Positions 15,569 through 22,829 of a stretch of DNA of 64,000 nt are shown here, piece by piece. The notes under the pieces are model-generated. The model ran no database searches. It had not been told where the DNA came from and worked only from the letters and a program-made list of their open reading frames with translations. Source of the DNA: Aquificaceae bacterium (lineage in GTDB: Bacteria > Aquificota > Aquificia > Aquificales > Aquificaceae); NCBI GenBank assembly GCA_037925075.1, contig JAXSNR010000002.1:64001-128000 (forward strand), given 5' to 3'. Position numbers and translations under genes: made by a program. The stretch's first letter is position 1. Every line of letters starts with the position of its first letter.

Positions 15569-15647
15569 AGGAATATTTTAATGTATACATAAACCAAGTG
15601 GTGAAACTCCTCCGAGTTTTAAGCCTAAAAACAACTCTTTATAAACT

Positions 15648-18590
15648 CTAACTGTTTTTAAATAAAGCCTCTAATAACTGAGCAAACCTATAAAAGCTGT
15701 CAAACCAATATTCTTTATATTTATCAAGCACCTTTTCCATGTTCTCAGTTCTAAGAAATAGTTTTACACTAACTAAATATTCATTGTATCTGAATGTTTT
15801 ACAAATTTTGTTTTCACCTTCTTTATACTCAAATATTCTGGAATATCCATCAATCTTTCTATAACCTTCCGCATATTCCGTGCTTTTCGGATCAACAAAA
15901 AGAATAATGTATCTATTTCCTTTCTTTAACCAAAAGATGAAATCAGGCTTAAATTTTTCAATTTTATTTGTTTTAGGTTGATAGTAAGGAATATAGACCT
16001 CATCAAGATTTTCATCAATCTTAGAGAAAAACCACCAATCAAATTGTTCAAAAAAGTTATTTCGTGTTTTAAGATATTCTTCTAATTCCTTTATAAAATC
16101 AACTTCGCTCCTGGTTTTGATGATATGAGTAATGTAATTTATCTTCTCGTCTTCTGATAATAAAACAGGAATATAATAGTGGTTTTGAATGTAGTTAATG
16201 GCTAAAGGCCCATGTTCTACTTCTTTTATGAAATTTTTATCTATGTTCCTTATCTCTTCGGTATATTTATCAATATCTATTTCCCTCTTGTGAAGCTGTT
16301 CTTTAAGCTCCTTTTCCTTTTCTCCTTTTAGCGGATAAGCTTTGACTTTTATTATCTTTTCTCTAATGCTGTTTAATTTTTCCTTACTAATTCTTACCTG
16401 CTTAAAGTGTATGATTTCATTCTCCAGTGGCTTTAGCTCTCTAAATTCTTTAGTCCTTATTGAAAAATGGCGGGATATATTCCTAAGTAGAATTTCTGGC
16501 TTTGCAATTGTAGATACATTTTTATTAGTATTGTAGTATTCATCTTGATTACGAAAACTCTCTTTTATCTTCTTTAATATTTTTGGTTCCATATCAAACT
16601 TTACCAACGCTACTTTATCATCAATATAGTTAAGATAATTCATTGTAAGCTTCAAATCATCTTTGCTAATCTCAAACTTGATAAAATACTGTTCGTCAAC
16701 TAACATCTTTTCGCTTTCTGTATATACTGGAATTAAAAGCAACTTATCCTTTATATCAGGATTAATCTCAAAAAGGTTTCCTATAAGTTCTTCTTGTTTT
16801 TGTTCTTTAAGTGTTTCAATTACTTCTTTAAGGTTTTCTGCTTTTGTGCCATAAACAAAGAGTGTTTCAATTAGATTAATATTATTATTCTTCTTTATCT
16901 CTTCAAACATATTTTTCTTAATTTCATTGTTGTTATACAAAACTTCCAATCTTTTTCTTTTATTTGGCAATGGTTCAATACGAACACCTCTTCCTATAGA
17001 TTGCAAAACAAACTTTTTAGCATCTGTTCCTTTTCCTATGTTTATGTATAAAATAATGTTTGGCCTGTTGCTATCCCATCCTTCATAAAAAGCCCGAGAA
17101 CCCATTAAAATATTTATGTCAGAATCCTCTTTATTGATTTTTTCAAATACGCTTTCATCAACAAGCGTTTCGTTAATTTCATAACCAGAGAGCTTATCTT
17201 TAATCCATTTATATGTATCACCGATCCTTATAAGTGCAAAAGGCTTTTCGCTTGTTTTAAGTTTAAAGCTTATTTGTTTATTGTCCTTCTGCTTTTTTAA
17301 TACTTCAATATCACCATTTGTTTTAGCATTAAAAACATTTTCTAAAATATCTTCAAAAGTCAGATTATTAATCTGTTCATCCTCAAATTGAATTCTATCA
17401 GGGACAAATTCACAAGTATGTTGTAAATCGTTAATTAAATCCCTTTTGGCTTCCTGTAAAAGATCATCATCAACGCCATCTTTTGCAATTTTAACTAGCT
17501 CTCTAAAAAAGAGTTCAAGGTCGGAATCCTCTGTATTTACCGAATTTACCAGTGTTAGTATTAAAGGTTTATGATAAAAACCTTGTGGTTTTGATTTTTT
17601 TATTAGTGTATGGAGCAAGAAGATTTTTAAAATTATTACTTGTTTTTGTCTTTCTGTCAATTCTGTATGTTTTTGTAAGGCTTCTATATTTGATTGAGAT
17701 ATATAAACCTGCTTGCCATATCCACTCTGTATGAATTTTTCCAGATTAAAATTAAACACACAGGTTGCAAAATCTCTCGGATCAGTAAAGGTAGCCGAAA
17801 AGTTAAACAAAAATCCATTTCTGGAAAGTATAGAGTAATATAATTGTCTCTTACTATCCTCTTTATCACCCTTATGAGCTTCATCAAGGATTATGTACCA
17901 ATTACCATTGGCATCATAATTTCTGAAATCAATAATTTTCTCTTTTTGTTCATCGGATATTAAATCGCTTCTATAATAAAACACATCTATTTCATTCCCC
18001 ATTTTTAGCTTGTTTTCTCTTTTTACTTTTTCATAGTCCTTTAAACTATACAAGATAATATGTAAGGAGTTGTCCGAAGAGTTAAACTCATTAACATGTT
18101 TTTTAAATTGGTCAATAAGGTCTTCACGATAAGTTAGAAAGAGGATTTCTTTTTGTGGTATCTGTCCATTTTTTATGAGATTTCCAAGTAATTCAATTAG
18201 CTTAATAATAACAAGTGTTTTACCGCTTCCCGTTGCCATCCAAAAACTCATTCGGTTGATAAAGTTATAAAATGGTATAGTGCTGTTTTGTATTTCATAA
18301 TACTCCTCAAGGATTTTAAAAATTTTGTGATTTTTACCGTTCAATTTATAGTCAAGCCCTTTTGTTTCTATCAAGCCGTTATTTTTGTAAAGTTCAAAAA
18401 AGCTTTCTTTGTTTCCATTGCAATCTTTGTAATACTTATATAAAGCTTTCAAAGCATTTTCCAGTACTTTCTGTTGATAATCAAACAAGGTTTTTTTATT
18501 TGAAAACTTTGCTAAATCAAAGCTTAGCCAATCAGGTTCTAAGGATTGCATTTGAATGGAATTTACTATTTTTTGCAAGTACAGTTCCAT
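15648..18590 (-). CDS. res: Type III restriction endonuclease Res subunit
   Basis: MATGSGKT, DEAH, FSAT, EGWD, QSIGRGVR helicase motifs; C-terminal PDF...DPK nuclease motif; AT-rich. Confidence 0.92.
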   Translation of the reverse strand: MELYLQKIVNSIQMQSLEPDWLSFDLAKFSNKKTLFDYQQKVLENALKALYKYYKDCNGNKESFFELYKNNGLIETKGLDYKLNGKNHKIFKILEEYYEIQNSTIPFYNFINRMSFWMATGSGKTLVIIKLIELLGNLIKNGQIPQKEILFLTYREDLIDQFKKHVNEFNSSDNSLHIILYSLKDYEKVKRENKLKMGNEIDVFYYRSDLISDEQKEKIIDFRNYDANGNWYIILDEAHKGDKEDSKRQLYYSILSRNGFLFNFSATFTDPRDFATCVFNFNLEKFIQSGYGKQVYISQSNIEALQKHTELTERQKQVIILKIFLLHTLIKKSKPQGFYHKPLILTLVNSVNTEDSDLELFFRELVKIAKDGVDDDLLQEAKRDLINDLQHTCEFVPDRIQFEDEQINNLTFEDILENVFNAKTNGDIEVLKKQKDNKQISFKLKTSEKPFALIRIGDTYKWIKDKLSGYEINETLVDESVFEKINKEDSDINILMGSRAFYEGWDSNRPNIILYINIGKGTDAKKFVLQSIGRGVRIEPLPNKRKRLEVLYNNNEIKKNMFEEIKKNNNINLIETLFVYGTKAENLKEVIETLKEQKQEELIGNLFEINPDIKDKLLLIPVYTESEKMLVDEQYFIKFEISKDDLKLTMNYLNYIDDKVALVKFDMEPKILKKIKESFRNQDEYYNTNKNVSTIAKPEILLRNISRHFSIRTKEFRELKPLENEIIHFKQVRISKEKLNSIREKIIKVKAYPLKGEKEKELKEQLHKREIDIDKYTEEIRNIDKNFIKEVEHGPLAINYIQNHYYIPVLLSEDEKINYITHIIKTRSEVDFIKELEEYLKTRNNFFEQFDWWFFSKIDENLDEVYIPYYQPKTNKIEKFKPDFIFWLKKGNRYIILFVDPKSTEYAEGYRKIDGYSRIFEYKEGENKICKTFRYNEYLVSVKLFLRTENMEKVLDKYKEYWFDSFYRFAQLLEALFKNS

Positions 18591-18594
18591 TATT

Positions 18595-21222
18595 TCACTC
18601 CCACCATATAAGTGGTTTAATAAGTTTATAATCTAAATCTTTTGTGTTTATAACCGTTCCATCTTCAAACTCTACTTCATCTTTCCGGATTTTCTTGATC
18701 CACTTACCTGTAAGATTAGATAGGGTTTCCGCAATGTCAATGTTAGAATAAAGCTTTGATAAATCTACTTTCACTTTGTTATTTTCATAGTCTATTTCAA
18801 GAGCTTTGAGCATTTTTTCATCCTTCATAAAAACATACTCTTGGTATGGATCCCTTCGGGGTATAGTAAATAGGTCCCCATCTTCATACTTACAATTTGC
18901 CAGTGTTTCTTCGTATTGTTCAAGTTCGTAGTATTTAAAGAATATTCCTATACCATCTACATCTTTTGGCTTACCTTCTTCCCAGTTAAATGAATAGGCA
19001 ATCTTTTTAATTCTCGGAATGATTACGGTTTCAAAGTAATCTGCCATTTCTACAAGGATAAACTTTCTTTTGCCTCCATCTTCTTTATTTAGTTTCATAA
19101 CTGCGTGAGCGGTTGTGCCAGAGCCGGCGAAGAAGTCGAGAATTAAGTCTTTTTTACGTGATGAAACGTAAATTAAAAGCTTTATTAAATTAGTGGGTTT
19201 TGCAGTATCAAAAGTTACACCTAATAAATTCTTTAGTTCTTTTGTCGCTTCGGAAGTTCCTCCAATTTTATAAGGCAATTCATTATCATCTAAAACACTT
19301 TTCAATGGATCCCCATTAATCATACCCTCAGCATCATGTAAATACTTTTTTATCATAATTCTATATTTGTCCCTCTCTTTAATTACACCAATTACTCCGC
19401 GAGCATAAACCTCTTCCATACTCTTCTTTGTCATTGCGAATACTGATTCTCCGTCCTCAGATGGATAAATAACTACTTCTTGTGTTGGATCTATTTCCTC
19501 TGTATTCTTTTTGAAATCTAATCTATCTTCCTTGAAGTTATATACAACACCATAGAATAGATTGGGCCTTTGTTCTTTAGTATATTGATGAATTACCAAA
19601 TCATGCCACTTGAATATTCCATGTTGATCTTTATTTACGTACTTCCTTAGTTTTGTTGGACTCAAAATATTCGTAAAAATCTTGGAATTTTGTAATCCCC
19701 ATACAAATATATATTCATGAATTTCTGTAATATCTGAAATAACATAACTACCACTTGCACTTCTTCTTTTCCAAACTAGGTCTGCAAAGCGTTTTTCAAA
19801 TAGATTTTCTAAGATAATGCCGAGTTTATAAGATTCCTTGTAGTAGTTTTGATTATTCGCTATACTTACAAAGATAACTCCATCGCTTTTCATTAACTCC
19901 CTTGCCAAACTTAACCTATTTTCCATCATCGTAAGCCAAGAAGAAGATCTAAATCTATCACTATAAATAAATTCATCACTTCCCGTGTTATAAGGTGGGT
20001 CAATATAGATTGTCTGCACCTTTTCCCTAAATTTTGGTAAAATAGTATTCAATGCCTGATAGTTTTCACTTTTTATAAGCCAACCATCCAAGGAATTATC
20101 TAAATCATCAAACAATCCAAGAATTTCAAGTTCTAAATCCTTAAAGTACTTTGTATCAATAGGTAAATGCTTGTATTTGTTTGATAACTTCTTACCTGTT
20201 AAATCCTTTTCAAAAACATTCTCCACCTTAAAGCTCTCATCTACTATTCCCAACTCTTGCCATTCTTTTATCTGCTCTTTAATGTTTTCGTGGTTTAGTA
20301 TCTTTTCAATAACACTGTATCCACCATCCTTTTCCGCTATCCTGTCCAGTGTAATCACATAGTTAGAGTTTTTCACAAACTTTGGTTTGTTCCAGATTTT
20401 TAACAGTTCATCTTCAAACTGCGATATAAAGTCAATAATCTTAAAAGCAATTTCCTTTAGGATTTGCAATTGATTTATCCTATCCGCTGTCCATTCTTTT
20501 GCTCCATCCCAAACATATTGGTAAACCCATAGTTTAAACTGCTCATGTAAAAAGGCTTTGGCGTTCTTGTTAATAAAGAAATCAACTTCGCTTTGTTTTT
20601 CAAAAATCTTAAAGGCACGTTCCAATTGGTCTTCGGTAATCTTAATACCTTTTCCCTTTAGAGCCTTTAAAATCTCCTCCTGCTTTGTTTTTGTTCCTTT
20701 TTCAGAGTATTTAATACTAAAAACAATTGTCCCATCTTCCTTAACCTCTTTTAATTCAAAAACCAAGGATCTTTTCTCATTAGCTTTCTTGTTTTCTATC
20801 TCTGTCGCATCAAAGTAGAATTTAAGTCCGTCAAACTCCACAGGCAAACTTCTAAAAATCCTGTCGGTTTTCACATAATAGAGCATATGAGTTTTCCAGA
20901 ATAAAATAACATCTCTATCATCAGTATAAACTTTCTCGTAAATATTGCTATGAAAAGGCGTTGAATTAAAATAAATTGAGCCACTTTCTGTGAAATATCT
21001 ACTAAAGAAAGAATAAAGCTTATCAAAGAGTTCATCCCTAAAGGATGGGTATTTTTCTAAAGCCTTTTCTATATCTTCCCTTAGAAACTTCTCTATTTTT
21101 TCATAGTATTTTGATTTTATATTCATTAAGTTAATAAAACCACCTTTGCCTTCAACCTTCGCACCGACAAATACGTCCCGCAAGGCGGAATAAAATTTTT
21201 GTTCCTTACTTTCGGTAGCCAT
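18595..21222 (-). CDS. mod: Type III R-M DNA methyltransferase Mod subunit (beta class)
   Basis: YIDPPYN precedes DFFAGSGTT with an intervening AT-rich TRD; stop is 4 nt before the res ATG. Confidence 0.93.
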   Translation of the reverse strand: MATESKEQKFYSALRDVFVGAKVEGKGGFINLMNIKSKYYEKIEKFLREDIEKALEKYPSFRDELFDKLYSFFSRYFTESGSIYFNSTPFHSNIYEKVYTDDRDVILFWKTHMLYYVKTDRIFRSLPVEFDGLKFYFDATEIENKKANEKRSLVFELKEVKEDGTIVFSIKYSEKGTKTKQEEILKALKGKGIKITEDQLERAFKIFEKQSEVDFFINKNAKAFLHEQFKLWVYQYVWDGAKEWTADRINQLQILKEIAFKIIDFISQFEDELLKIWNKPKFVKNSNYVITLDRIAEKDGGYSVIEKILNHENIKEQIKEWQELGIVDESFKVENVFEKDLTGKKLSNKYKHLPIDTKYFKDLELEILGLFDDLDNSLDGWLIKSENYQALNTILPKFREKVQTIYIDPPYNTGSDEFIYSDRFRSSSWLTMMENRLSLARELMKSDGVIFVSIANNQNYYKESYKLGIILENLFEKRFADLVWKRRSASGSYVISDITEIHEYIFVWGLQNSKIFTNILSPTKLRKYVNKDQHGIFKWHDLVIHQYTKEQRPNLFYGVVYNFKEDRLDFKKNTEEIDPTQEVVIYPSEDGESVFAMTKKSMEEVYARGVIGVIKERDKYRIMIKKYLHDAEGMINGDPLKSVLDDNELPYKIGGTSEATKELKNLLGVTFDTAKPTNLIKLLIYVSSRKKDLILDFFAGSGTTAHAVMKLNKEDGGKRKFILVEMADYFETVIIPRIKKIAYSFNWEEGKPKDVDGIGIFFKYYELEQYEETLANCKYEDGDLFTIPRRDPYQEYVFMKDEKMLKALEIDYENNKVKVDLSKLYSNIDIAETLSNLTGKWIKKIRKDEVEFEDGTVINTKDLDYKLIKPLIWWE

Positions 21223-21224
21223 GT

Positions 21225-21422
21225 ATATTATTATAACCCATTTGGGAATTTTTTATCCCGCTTGTATGTTCTAACCTATCCTCCCTCTTTTGACTTGTTT
21301 TTCACCTCTGGTGGCAAAAAGCTTACATCCTTGTAGTATGTAGGTCTGAAAAAGATCCAATGCTTGAGGTTTTCAGGGGTTTTTGAATAGGAAACTTCAC
21401 ATAGCAAACCACCTTCCATTAA
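21225..21422. repeat. Direct repeat copy 1 (3' end of the 120-aa Cys-rich gene plus mod promoter)
   Basis: Aligns with 22417-22613; encodes LMEGGLLCEVSYSKTPENLKHWIFFRPTYYKDVSFLPPE. Confidence 0.92.
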
Positions 21423-21476
21423 TAAGGTTTCAAAAGGAATATCGTTTATGATGTTTTGTAAGTATAATTTAGACAT
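21276..21476 (-). pseudogene. Chimeric remnant: Res N-terminus fused to the duplicated C-terminus of the host gene
   Basis: MSKLYLQNIINDIPFETL resembles the Res start MELYLQKIVNSIQMQSL; the rest matches the C-terminus of 22467-22829. Confidence 0.8.
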
Positions 21477-22203
21477 TTTCAAGCGTTATTTCTTCTCCAT
21501 TACTGAATACTTTTAAGCCTTTAATCTCAATCCATTCCTCTCCAATAGTTAAAGGTTCTGTAGCTATTATCACCGCCTTCTCGTCTGGCTTTTTAATTTC
21601 TTCAAGGCTCAAGCTATATCCTTTATCTTTTAGTGTTACTTTCGGAAACGGTGCTTGTCGTTTCACAAAATATAATGCGTCATGCCCAAATGCAAAAAGA
21701 TAGTTCCCGTCGGACATCAAGAAATTAAATCTACCTAATTTAGAGATCTTCTCTGCTTCCAGCTTTAGAATTTTGTAAATATCTTGAAGCTTCTCTTTTC
21801 CGGCAATTTTATCCAACAAATAACAGAATGCGTGTTCAGAATCAGTATCTCCCTCAGGTTTAAAATTCTCTAATGCCCAAGATTTTATTTTCCTTACTGT
21901 TCCATTATGAGCAAATGACCAGTTTTTTCTATCAAATGGATGGGTATTTTTATGAGCTTGGCTACCACAACTTGCTAATCGAACATGCCCAATGATAATT
22001 TTGCTTTTGAATTTAAATTTATTATCAGTTATATCAGCATCAGCAAGAGATGTTGGACTTTTAATTATTTTGAGGGTGTTATTTTCGTCGTAAAAAGCAA
22101 AGCCATAGCCATGATAATTTGATCTTCCCCTAAGTTGAAATTCCTCTAAGGAAAGATTGATATCAACAAAATTATTGGATGATACTCCTAAAAGTTGACA
22201 CAT
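21469..22203 (-). CDS. Class II glutamine amidotransferase / Ntn-hydrolase (YafJ/EgtC-like)
   Basis: N-terminal MCQLLG, GYGFAFY, GHVRLAS, NTHPF, FAHNG, GDTDSE, ATEPL. Confidence 0.92.
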   Translation of the reverse strand: MCQLLGVSSNNFVDINLSLEEFQLRGRSNYHGYGFAFYDENNTLKIIKSPTSLADADITDNKFKFKSKIIIGHVRLASCGSQAHKNTHPFDRKNWSFAHNGTVRKIKSWALENFKPEGDTDSEHAFCYLLDKIAGKEKLQDIYKILKLEAEKISKLGRFNFLMSDGNYLFAFGHDALYFVKRQAPFPKVTLKDKGYSLSLEEIKKPDEKAVIIATEPLTIGEEWIEIKGLKVFSNGEEITLENV

Positions 22204-22207
22204 GTTT

Positions 22208-22418
22208 TTACCCCCACCAAATTAAAGGTTTAATCAATTTATAATCCAAATCTTTGGTATTAATTTTTGTACTGTCTACAAATTTCACTTTTCTTAATCC
22301 AATTTTTTATAATATTCTGATTTTATCTTCATCAAATTGACAAAACCACCTTCGCTCTCAACCTCCGCACCAATAAATAAGTCTCGCAAGGCTTTATAAA
22401 ATTTTTGTACTTTGACAT
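22208..22418 (-). pseudogene. Internally deleted type III mod pseudogene
   Basis: 5' part reads QKFYKALRDLFIGAEVESEGGFVNLMKIKSEYY and 3' part reads VKFVDSTKINTKDLDYKLIKPLIWWG*, matching both ends of the intact Mod. Confidence 0.9.
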
Positions 22419-22613
22419 ATTATTATAACCCATTTGGGAATTTTTGTCAAGCTTGTGTGGTCTAGCCTATTGTCCCTTTTTCGGCTTGTTTTTCGCCTCT
22501 GGTGGCAAAAAGCTTACATCCTTGTAATAGGTAGGCCTGAAAAAGACCCAATGCTTAAGGTTTTCGGGGGTTTTTGAATAGCAAATTTCACATAGCAAAC
22601 CTCCCTCCACCAA
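22417..22613. repeat. Direct repeat copy 2
   Basis: Aligns with 21225-21422. Confidence 0.92.
22422..22450 (-). promoter_or_regulatory. Consensus sigma-70 promoter upstream of mod'/amidotransferase
   Basis: TTGACA-17 nt-TATAAT on the minus strand. Confidence 0.85.
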
Positions 22614-22829
22614 CTTTGAATTGTCATCACAGCAATCCGTTAGGTTCCAAAACTCATAGTTATCATGAAATATTAGCTTGCTACAGCCAAGACATTCATA
22701 AAGCTTACAGCCCTTTGAGGATAGAAACTCTTTAAGCTCCATATCCTCAGGAAGCTTTTCAAGTTCAAAGAGGTTTTTGAGAAACTCTTTCTGTCTCTTT
22801 TCCAGCTCCCTTATCTTCATGGTACTCAC
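22467..22829 (-). CDS. Cys-rich hypothetical protein (possible zinc binding)
   Basis: CxxC (CLGC), CC and CxxC (CEIC); GTG start overlaps the upstream stop. Confidence 0.7.
   Translation of the reverse strand: MSTMKIRELEKRQKEFLKNLFELEKLPEDMELKEFLSSKGCKLYECLGCSKLIFHDNYEFWNLTDCCDDNSKLVEGGLLCEICYSKTPENLKHWVFFRPTYYKDVSFLPPEAKNKPKKGQ

Follow-up and report, generated by a model that had tools for sequence, protein, structure and literature searches.

How did an intact hydrolase gene come to lie between the remains of a type III restriction-modification (R-M) system, and could it take part in defence against phages? The question is raised by a 64,000-nucleotide stretch of the genome of an Aquificaceae bacterium (the window), for which the initial annotation had proposed that a YafJ/EgtC-like class II glutamine amidotransferase gene (here, the GATase) is flanked by two R-M relics and descends from a mod-GATase-res cassette. 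Read along the minus strand, the locus runs from a lytic transglycosylase gene through core gene, promoter, mod relic, GATase, res relic, duplicate of the core-gene end, mod and res to an RNase H-like gene. The features concerned are the following.

22467..22829, minus strand: 120-aa core gene, function not assigned, at the island's left edge (slt-hyp-RNaseH-like core operon)
22422..22450, minus strand: predicted promoter, perfect sigma-70 consensus TTGACA-17-TATAAT (12/12 matches), now ~220 nt before the GATase
22297..22418, minus strand: 5' piece of the mod relic, ~40 codons, frameshifted near its start (tblastn and profile)
22208..22306, minus strand: 3' piece of the mod relic, ending KLIKPLIWWG-stop, with a second small deletion (tblastn and profile)
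22204..22207, minus strand: 4-nt gap between the mod-relic stop and the GATase start (sequence)
21469..22203, minus strand: intact class II glutamine amidotransferase-like Ntn hydrolase (GATase_4, YafJ/EgtC family), 244 aa, 34% GC
21420..21476, minus strand: res relic, first 19 codons, with an 8-nt overlap with the GATase end (Res N-terminal profile, E 0.0013)
21276..21418, minus strand: second copy of the core-gene 3' end, into which the res relic reads as an in-frame fusion (tblastn; 86% identity to 22433-22609 over 177 nt)
21230..21259, minus strand: duplicate of the promoter region in which TATAAT is retained and the -35 departs from consensus, 7 nt ahead of the mod ATG (sequence)
18595..21222, minus strand: intact type III Mod, 875 aa (PADLOC MTase_III PDLC03638, E 1e-234)
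15648..18590, minus strand: intact type III Res, 980 aa (PF04851, E 4.6e-17; PADLOC REase_III, E 5e-25)

The flanking fragments do align to Mod and Res. By tblastn, residues 6-44 of the intact Mod match 22413-22297 (67%, E 6e-10) and residues 844-874 match 22306-22214 (74%, E 3e-6), so that the proposed joining of a Mod start to a Mod end is confirmed; the frameshift near the start and the second small deletion had been missed. Profiles made from homologues of each protein (119 for Mod, 119 for Res), with the window's own proteins excluded, were run against 59,705 six-frame segments of the genome. The two mod-relic pieces scored E 9e-19 (5') and 5e-15 (3') against the Mod termini, each second only to the intact gene, and the res relic was the second match in the genome to the Res N-terminal profile, after the intact Res and well ahead of the next match (E 0.42). 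The start MSKLYLQ occurs in 7 of the 119 Res homologues. The mod-relic stop (TAA, 22210-22208) is followed by AAAC and then by the GATase ATG at 22203, a 4-nt gap equal to that of the intact mod-res pair (stop at 18595, ATG at 18590), as had been claimed; the Res-like reading frame that had been described downstream does begin at an ATG at 21476, within the GATase end. The view that the cassette was originally mod-GATase-res is supported. Faulty assembly does not account for the arrangement: contigs of runs X1, X3 and X6 (two studies, X1 possibly being the source) bridge the junction of mod relic and GATase with no differences. The intact downstream pair (15648-21222), with its adjacent Mod methyltransferase and Res helicase-nuclease, is a classical two-gene type III system, whereas the relic system had an extra gene at its junction.

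What the extra gene encodes can be predicted in some detail. The protein matches PF13230 at E 2.7e-63 (213.9 bits, against a curated cut-off of 23), and its AF2 model (pLDDT 92) retrieves with Foldseek first the Pseudomonas aeruginosa YafJ structure 1te5, then EgtC, and also GlmS and PurF, placing the modelled protein in the Ntn fold. YafJ shares both fold and motifs with it, 1te5 being the best sequence match to the profile of its clade (E 4e-50) as well as the best fold match (E 1e-18, 31% identity). The class II motifs are all there (N-terminal Cys nucleophile, HxR, NTHPF, HNG and TDSE), with C2, H73, R75, N86-P89, H99-G101 and T120-E123 present and conserved. In GlmS and PurF, the residues of class II amidotransferases supply the nucleophile, the oxyanion hole and a pocket for the free alpha-amino and alpha-carboxyl groups of the glutamyl moiety. 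Because the conserved GATase residues form these same elements, the substrate is likely to be glutamine or a gamma-Glu-X compound, and we predict with good confidence that the enzyme hydrolyses gamma-glutamyl amides. With the initiator Met removed and a gamma-Glu-X substrate bound in the Arg75/His88/Asn100-Gly101/Asp121 pocket, Cys2 would attack the substrate's amide, releasing glutamate and X. EgtC and yeast Dug3 carry out gamma-glutamyl amide chemistry, a reaction that the GATase, by analogy, likely has in common with them. The kinship with EgtC (PDB 4zfj-4zfl) lies in the Ntn hydrolase fold (Foldseek E 4e-13); sequence identity is 18%, and the GATase scores 61.7 bits against a TIGR03442 cut-off of 218.65. 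Searches of the host genome gave no EgtB-type (PF03781) or GCS2 (PF04107) match, and hence no egtA/egtB partner of an ergothioneine pathway (controls were positive in 3 and 5 of 14). No PADLOC 2.0 family matches the GATase at E 0.001, and a search of the ESM Atlas returned GATase_4 clusters only.

The GATase belongs to a distinct group of relatives. A set of about 90 proteins (53-70% identity) is separated from the others, and FastTree groups 97 sequences with a support of 0.77 at the base and of 0.92-0.94 for the inner 89-94 sequences. A second cysteine, Cys79, is invariant in this clade (97/97, compared with 7/190 of the others). Enterobacterial YafJ, at ~34% identity, falls outside it; the clade is separate, has the invariant Cys79 and is island-borne beside defence genes. 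Its named hosts are scattered over Spirochaetes, Omnitrophica, WOR-3, Nitrospirota and three archaeal groups. The window's GATase is the one member among 178 Aquificota genomes, and samples of six other phyla (43, 301, 201, 401, 151 and 151 genomes) yielded none; neither did a scan of genome contigs, where the 80 matches listed are all distant YafJ. Viral contigs, plasmids and phages gave distant relatives only (at most 35% identity), and the junction DNA pattern had four chance matches in viral contigs, none with mod or GATase. When the contigs of GATase matches were compared with those of the top 120 Mod and top 120 Res matches, one coincidence was found, from different sources. Three genomes of the same genus (L002, L003 and L004) carry a different GATase_4 protein, at 36% identity, between an aminotransferase gene and grpE and outside islands.

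The company kept by the clade members is what suggests a role in defence. Neighbouring DNA was available for six clade loci among the matches listed, all on short metagenome contigs; four adjoin DNA methyltransferases of R-M systems and two adjoin other defence-like genes, and five of the six have a strong PADLOC match. The gene follows a type IIG enzyme at a spacing of 2 nt in L113, where the GATase copy has an in-frame stop, and follows a type IIG enzyme plus Mrr_N in L112 and L118 (89% identical), with a GmrSD fragment downstream in L112. In L114 it lies 27 nt ahead of R-M genes, with a type III Mod and then a PDC-S06 ATPase after it; in L111 it follows a Ppl-like protein (ATPase, E 9e-21) at 46 nt; and in L115 the next gene encodes a truncated RmrA-like protein, a weak match (E 4e-4). 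As a control, 37 random loci from distant relatives, each with more than 9 kb of DNA, were scanned over 140 neighbours: none lies next to R-M genes, and two have any match at 1e-12. Counting L112 and L118 once, R-M neighbours occur at 3/5 clade loci and 0/37 control loci (p 0.0009), a value that is overstated because the control consists mostly of vertically inherited proteobacterial YafJ and, for the same reason, cannot separate a defence role from mere mobility. Among 45 intermediate loci (five duplicates dropped), R-M-type neighbours were found at four (L117, L119, L131 and L195) and most had no match; in the more distant L117 the helicase, GATase and IIG genes overlap, and L116 precedes DarT/DarG-like genes. 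GATases embedded in, or tightly linked to, R-M genes are thus found in the window, in a metagenome contig from run X7, in L112-L114 and L118 and, more distantly, in L117. Of a pair of GATase_4-winged-helix fusions (L195:5959-7005 and L131:889-1935, 66% identical), the one in L195 lies after a type II R-M cluster and the one in L131 is flanked by an integrase and a type III Mod.

Our best reading is that this intact Ntn-fold enzyme, encoded at the mod-res junction of a type III system that has since decayed, probably serves defence as an exchangeable accessory working on its own; judged on sequence and genomic context, this reading falls marginally short of an even chance, and a defence role as such is about an even call. 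A swappable accessory is likely, rather than a fixed third subunit, because the closest relatives with visible neighbours adjoin anti-phage genes, and a stand-alone accessory is favoured over a Mod-Res subunit because the partners differ between loci and the GATase gene has outlasted the R-M system around it. The enzyme would back up restriction from outside the Mod-Res complex by hydrolysing some gamma-glutamyl pool or adduct of importance during infection, X being likely a small metabolite, nucleotide or protein adduct; this role is the least certain part of the reading. Against this reading stand the number of context loci (six among the matches listed, two of them related), the stop in the L113 copy, the lack of a PADLOC match to the GATase and the fact that just 4 of the 45 intermediate relatives adjoin R-M-type genes. 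The initial annotation had suspected an R-M accessory module that had not been described. The enrichment beside R-M and defence genes that this idea predicted is there (four of six clade loci among the matches listed, none of 37 ordinary YafJ loci); a three-gene system specific to type III is not borne out, given the IIG and Ppl-like partners, a junction that is filled otherwise or empty in relatives, and the want of a complete triad among the loci examined.

The main rival is that the GATase is a metabolic passenger, that is, a gamma-glutamyl salvage enzyme or glutaminase that rides defence islands, these being the places in which foreign DNA settles, and persists thanks to a benefit independent of phages. 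A scan of 38 longer relatives speaks for it, with one fusion to ChaC/GGCT and one to a poly-gamma-glutamate hydrolase, both gamma-glutamyl catabolic domains (several others are winged-helix fusions), and so does an island of Pyrococcus that also contains McrBC, where a class II GATase is paired with a gamma-glutamylcyclotransferase and, in the part of the article available to us, the authors read the two as gamma-glutamyl-cycle genes (PMC5126054). The survival of the GATase beyond its R-M neighbours and the variety of its partners fit a passenger as well. What makes this account rather unlikely in our judgement is that no metabolic partner gene lies beside any of the six clade loci among the matches listed, that the spacing to defence genes is tight at three of these loci and in the window (4 nt), and that the host genome has no match to PF03781 or PF04107. 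The proteins P0373, P0376 and P0399 combine GATase_4 with ChaC/GGCT-like or poly-gamma-glutamate hydrolase domains, the extra domain of P0376 being GGCT-like by eye only.

A second rival makes the GATase a dedicated third component of a type III subfamily, acting on or with Mod-Res. Fifteen of 24 relatives with a Mod match were examined, and both mod and res were visible in 13 Aquificaceae systems of this Mod family. The junction holds an unrelated gene of 153-261 aa in ten of them, the two genes are adjacent in three, and a GATase is present in none. One further instance of the mod side comes from a hot spring: record 22 of run X7 (1028 nt) aligns without gaps to 22135-22281 with 22 differences, spanning the mod end, the gap and the GATase start, and its loose end reads on in frame as a clade motif. 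This run does not contain the window's DNA, and the junction comes from another organism. Elsewhere, near-identical flanks enclose other inserts. Record 2 of X1 and record 17 of X5 differ from the mod end at 10 of 83 positions, and X5 record 17 also aligns to the res start (5 differences in 53). Between these flanks, which are 88-90% identical on both sides, lie 776 letters with less than 80% identity to the GATase, a more distant GATase still being possible there; X1 record 3 has too little room for a GATase. An empty slot at the 21476-22208 joint had been considered and was rejected on account of these 776 letters. We infer that the mod-res junction is an exchangeable cassette slot. The coupled spacing on both sides of the GATase, the X7 junction and the position of L114 and the more distant L131 before type III Mod genes would all suit a third component. 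The 0/13 count, the other inserts, the non-type III neighbours at four of the six clade loci among the matches listed (one of the six being next to a type III gene) and the failure to find a complete mod-GATase-res operon in the 13 relatives or in these six loci, the X7 contig giving the mod side only, make it improbable.

The initial annotation had also raised the idea that the enzyme strips amide-linked groups from hypermodified phage DNA, a claim that received no positive support. The modification-related neighbours Mrr_N and GmrSD_N in L112/L118 are compatible with such an anti-anti-restriction activity, which would let R-M cut, and the invariant Cys79 hints at altered chemistry. However, the pocket for a free glutamyl alpha-amino and alpha-carboxyl group is unchanged and points to a free gamma-glutamyl substrate, and neither Pfam nor fold matches detected a DNA-binding domain in the 244-aa protein. 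The known glutamyl-thymine is amine-linked and would be unsuited to GATase chemistry. We consider this activity very improbable.

The state of the gene itself suggests that it has been maintained. At positions with a conservation of 90% or more across the clade the GATase keeps 92/92, while three relic pieces keep 35/40 of theirs; at 80% conservation the figures are 107/108, second best of 87 sequences, and 46/57, where intact proteins lose about four on average. The Fisher tests (p 0.002 at 90%, 4e-5 at 80%) are to be read as indicative, as different genes are compared and some relic losses lie at junction edges, and they are indicative of constraint on the GATase while the relics decay. The upstream promoter belongs to a group of 17 sites with the perfect consensus genome-wide; its downstream copy is absent among the 10 promoter matches listed. 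Neutral survival, because the deletions are recent or because the intact mod-res needs the upstream promoter, has only a slight chance of being right: the sampled population contigs do show no difference, the downstream promoter copy has a poor -35, and no minus-strand terminator-like site separates the upstream promoter from the mod start, but the relics have gathered three lesions and several conserved-site changes in less than 300 nt against none in the 735 nt of the GATase, and a benefit confined to the promoter would leave its coding sequence unprotected.

The wider locus indicates how this arrangement may have arisen. The island (29-34% GC, in a genome of 44.5%) is bordered by the 120-aa core gene on one side and by the RNase H-like gene on the other (window 15569-22466). 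The core gene, found in 71 of 90 family genomes, is conserved, Cys-rich and coupled to the lytic transglycosylase gene, and has no Pfam or NCBIfam match. In 16 relatives the core and RNase H-like genes are adjacent in six, separated by other inserts in four and differently ordered in six, which marks the site as an insertion hotspot (window and L249-L255). Two of the four relatives with other inserts have a duplicated core-gene end (2/16 in all); in L250 and L251 the duplicated 3' end surrounds a low-GC insert. In the window, a direct repeat (22303-22609 and 21097-21418; 322 columns, 82% identity) consists of two diverged copies of the core-gene end, promoter and mod start. This repeat, the core-gene-end duplicate and the res-relic fusion were absent from the initial annotation. 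The fusion forms a 66-codon reading frame (21276-21476) just upstream of the intact mod, and a TATAAT stands 7 nt ahead of the mod start (21222-21235), a distance that suggests a leaderless transcript. In what appears to be the simplest history, a system A (promoter-modA-GATase-resA) would have inserted at the hotspot behind the core gene; DNA from a relative carrying a core-gene end, promoter, modB and resB would then have recombined in, replacing resA beyond codon 19; and modA would later have been lost by internal deletion, the GATase and the stronger promoter being retained.

Accessory genes embedded in R-M-type loci are known as a kind. According to the parts of the sources available, PrrC (in the type IC system EcoPrrI) and BrxU/GmrSD (in BREX) are non-R-M genes embedded in this way (PMC12707154), and RonA of Ronin is an R-M-embedded accessory (10.1101/2023.04.06.535777). 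These proteins share the embedded position with the GATase; in contrast to it, they are nucleases or a membrane toxin with one partner type each, the GATase being a predicted amidohydrolase with varied partners. A class II GATase has also been placed beside a D5 helicase in mobile elements, again in the portion of the source available (PMC10853773). QatB was considered as a possible GATase and dropped, since the accessible text describes it as having no motifs. Our literature search found no paper tying the GATase family to R-M or defence; defence-candidate tables in supplements could list the family.

Beside the GATase, the other slot-filled systems deserve mention. In nine of ten (L196, L197, L199, L201-L205 and L207) the Res is short, at 615-717 aa, and has no C-terminal nuclease region; L206 has both a slot gene and a nuclease-bearing Res. 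The slot genes show D-x(n)-E-x-K motifs by eye and fall into five unrelated families with no Pfam or NCBIfam match. These systems are likely a split-nuclease variant of type III, for which our literature search found no report, and which is possibly more novel than the GATase finding.

The mod-res slot in this type III family deserves mining: within a single bacterial family it accommodates at least five further gene families that lack annotation. To our knowledge, the described backup defences sheltered by R-M are nucleases or membrane toxins; the enzyme class met here, a predicted amidohydrolase, would be new among them. It is tempting to go further and speculate that the clade constitutes an undescribed anti-phage class of Ntn gamma-glutamyl amidohydrolases with their own invariant second cysteine, swapped among the mod-res junction and other R-M loci and backing restriction by removing a gamma-glutamyl tag or by draining a gamma-glutamyl or glutamine pool that phages need, a proposal that we make tentatively and hold to be doubtful as a whole. 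If a defence activity is true, the GATase would bring a new chemistry to bacterial immunity and would for the first time open the YafJ family, so far uncharacterised, to functional study.
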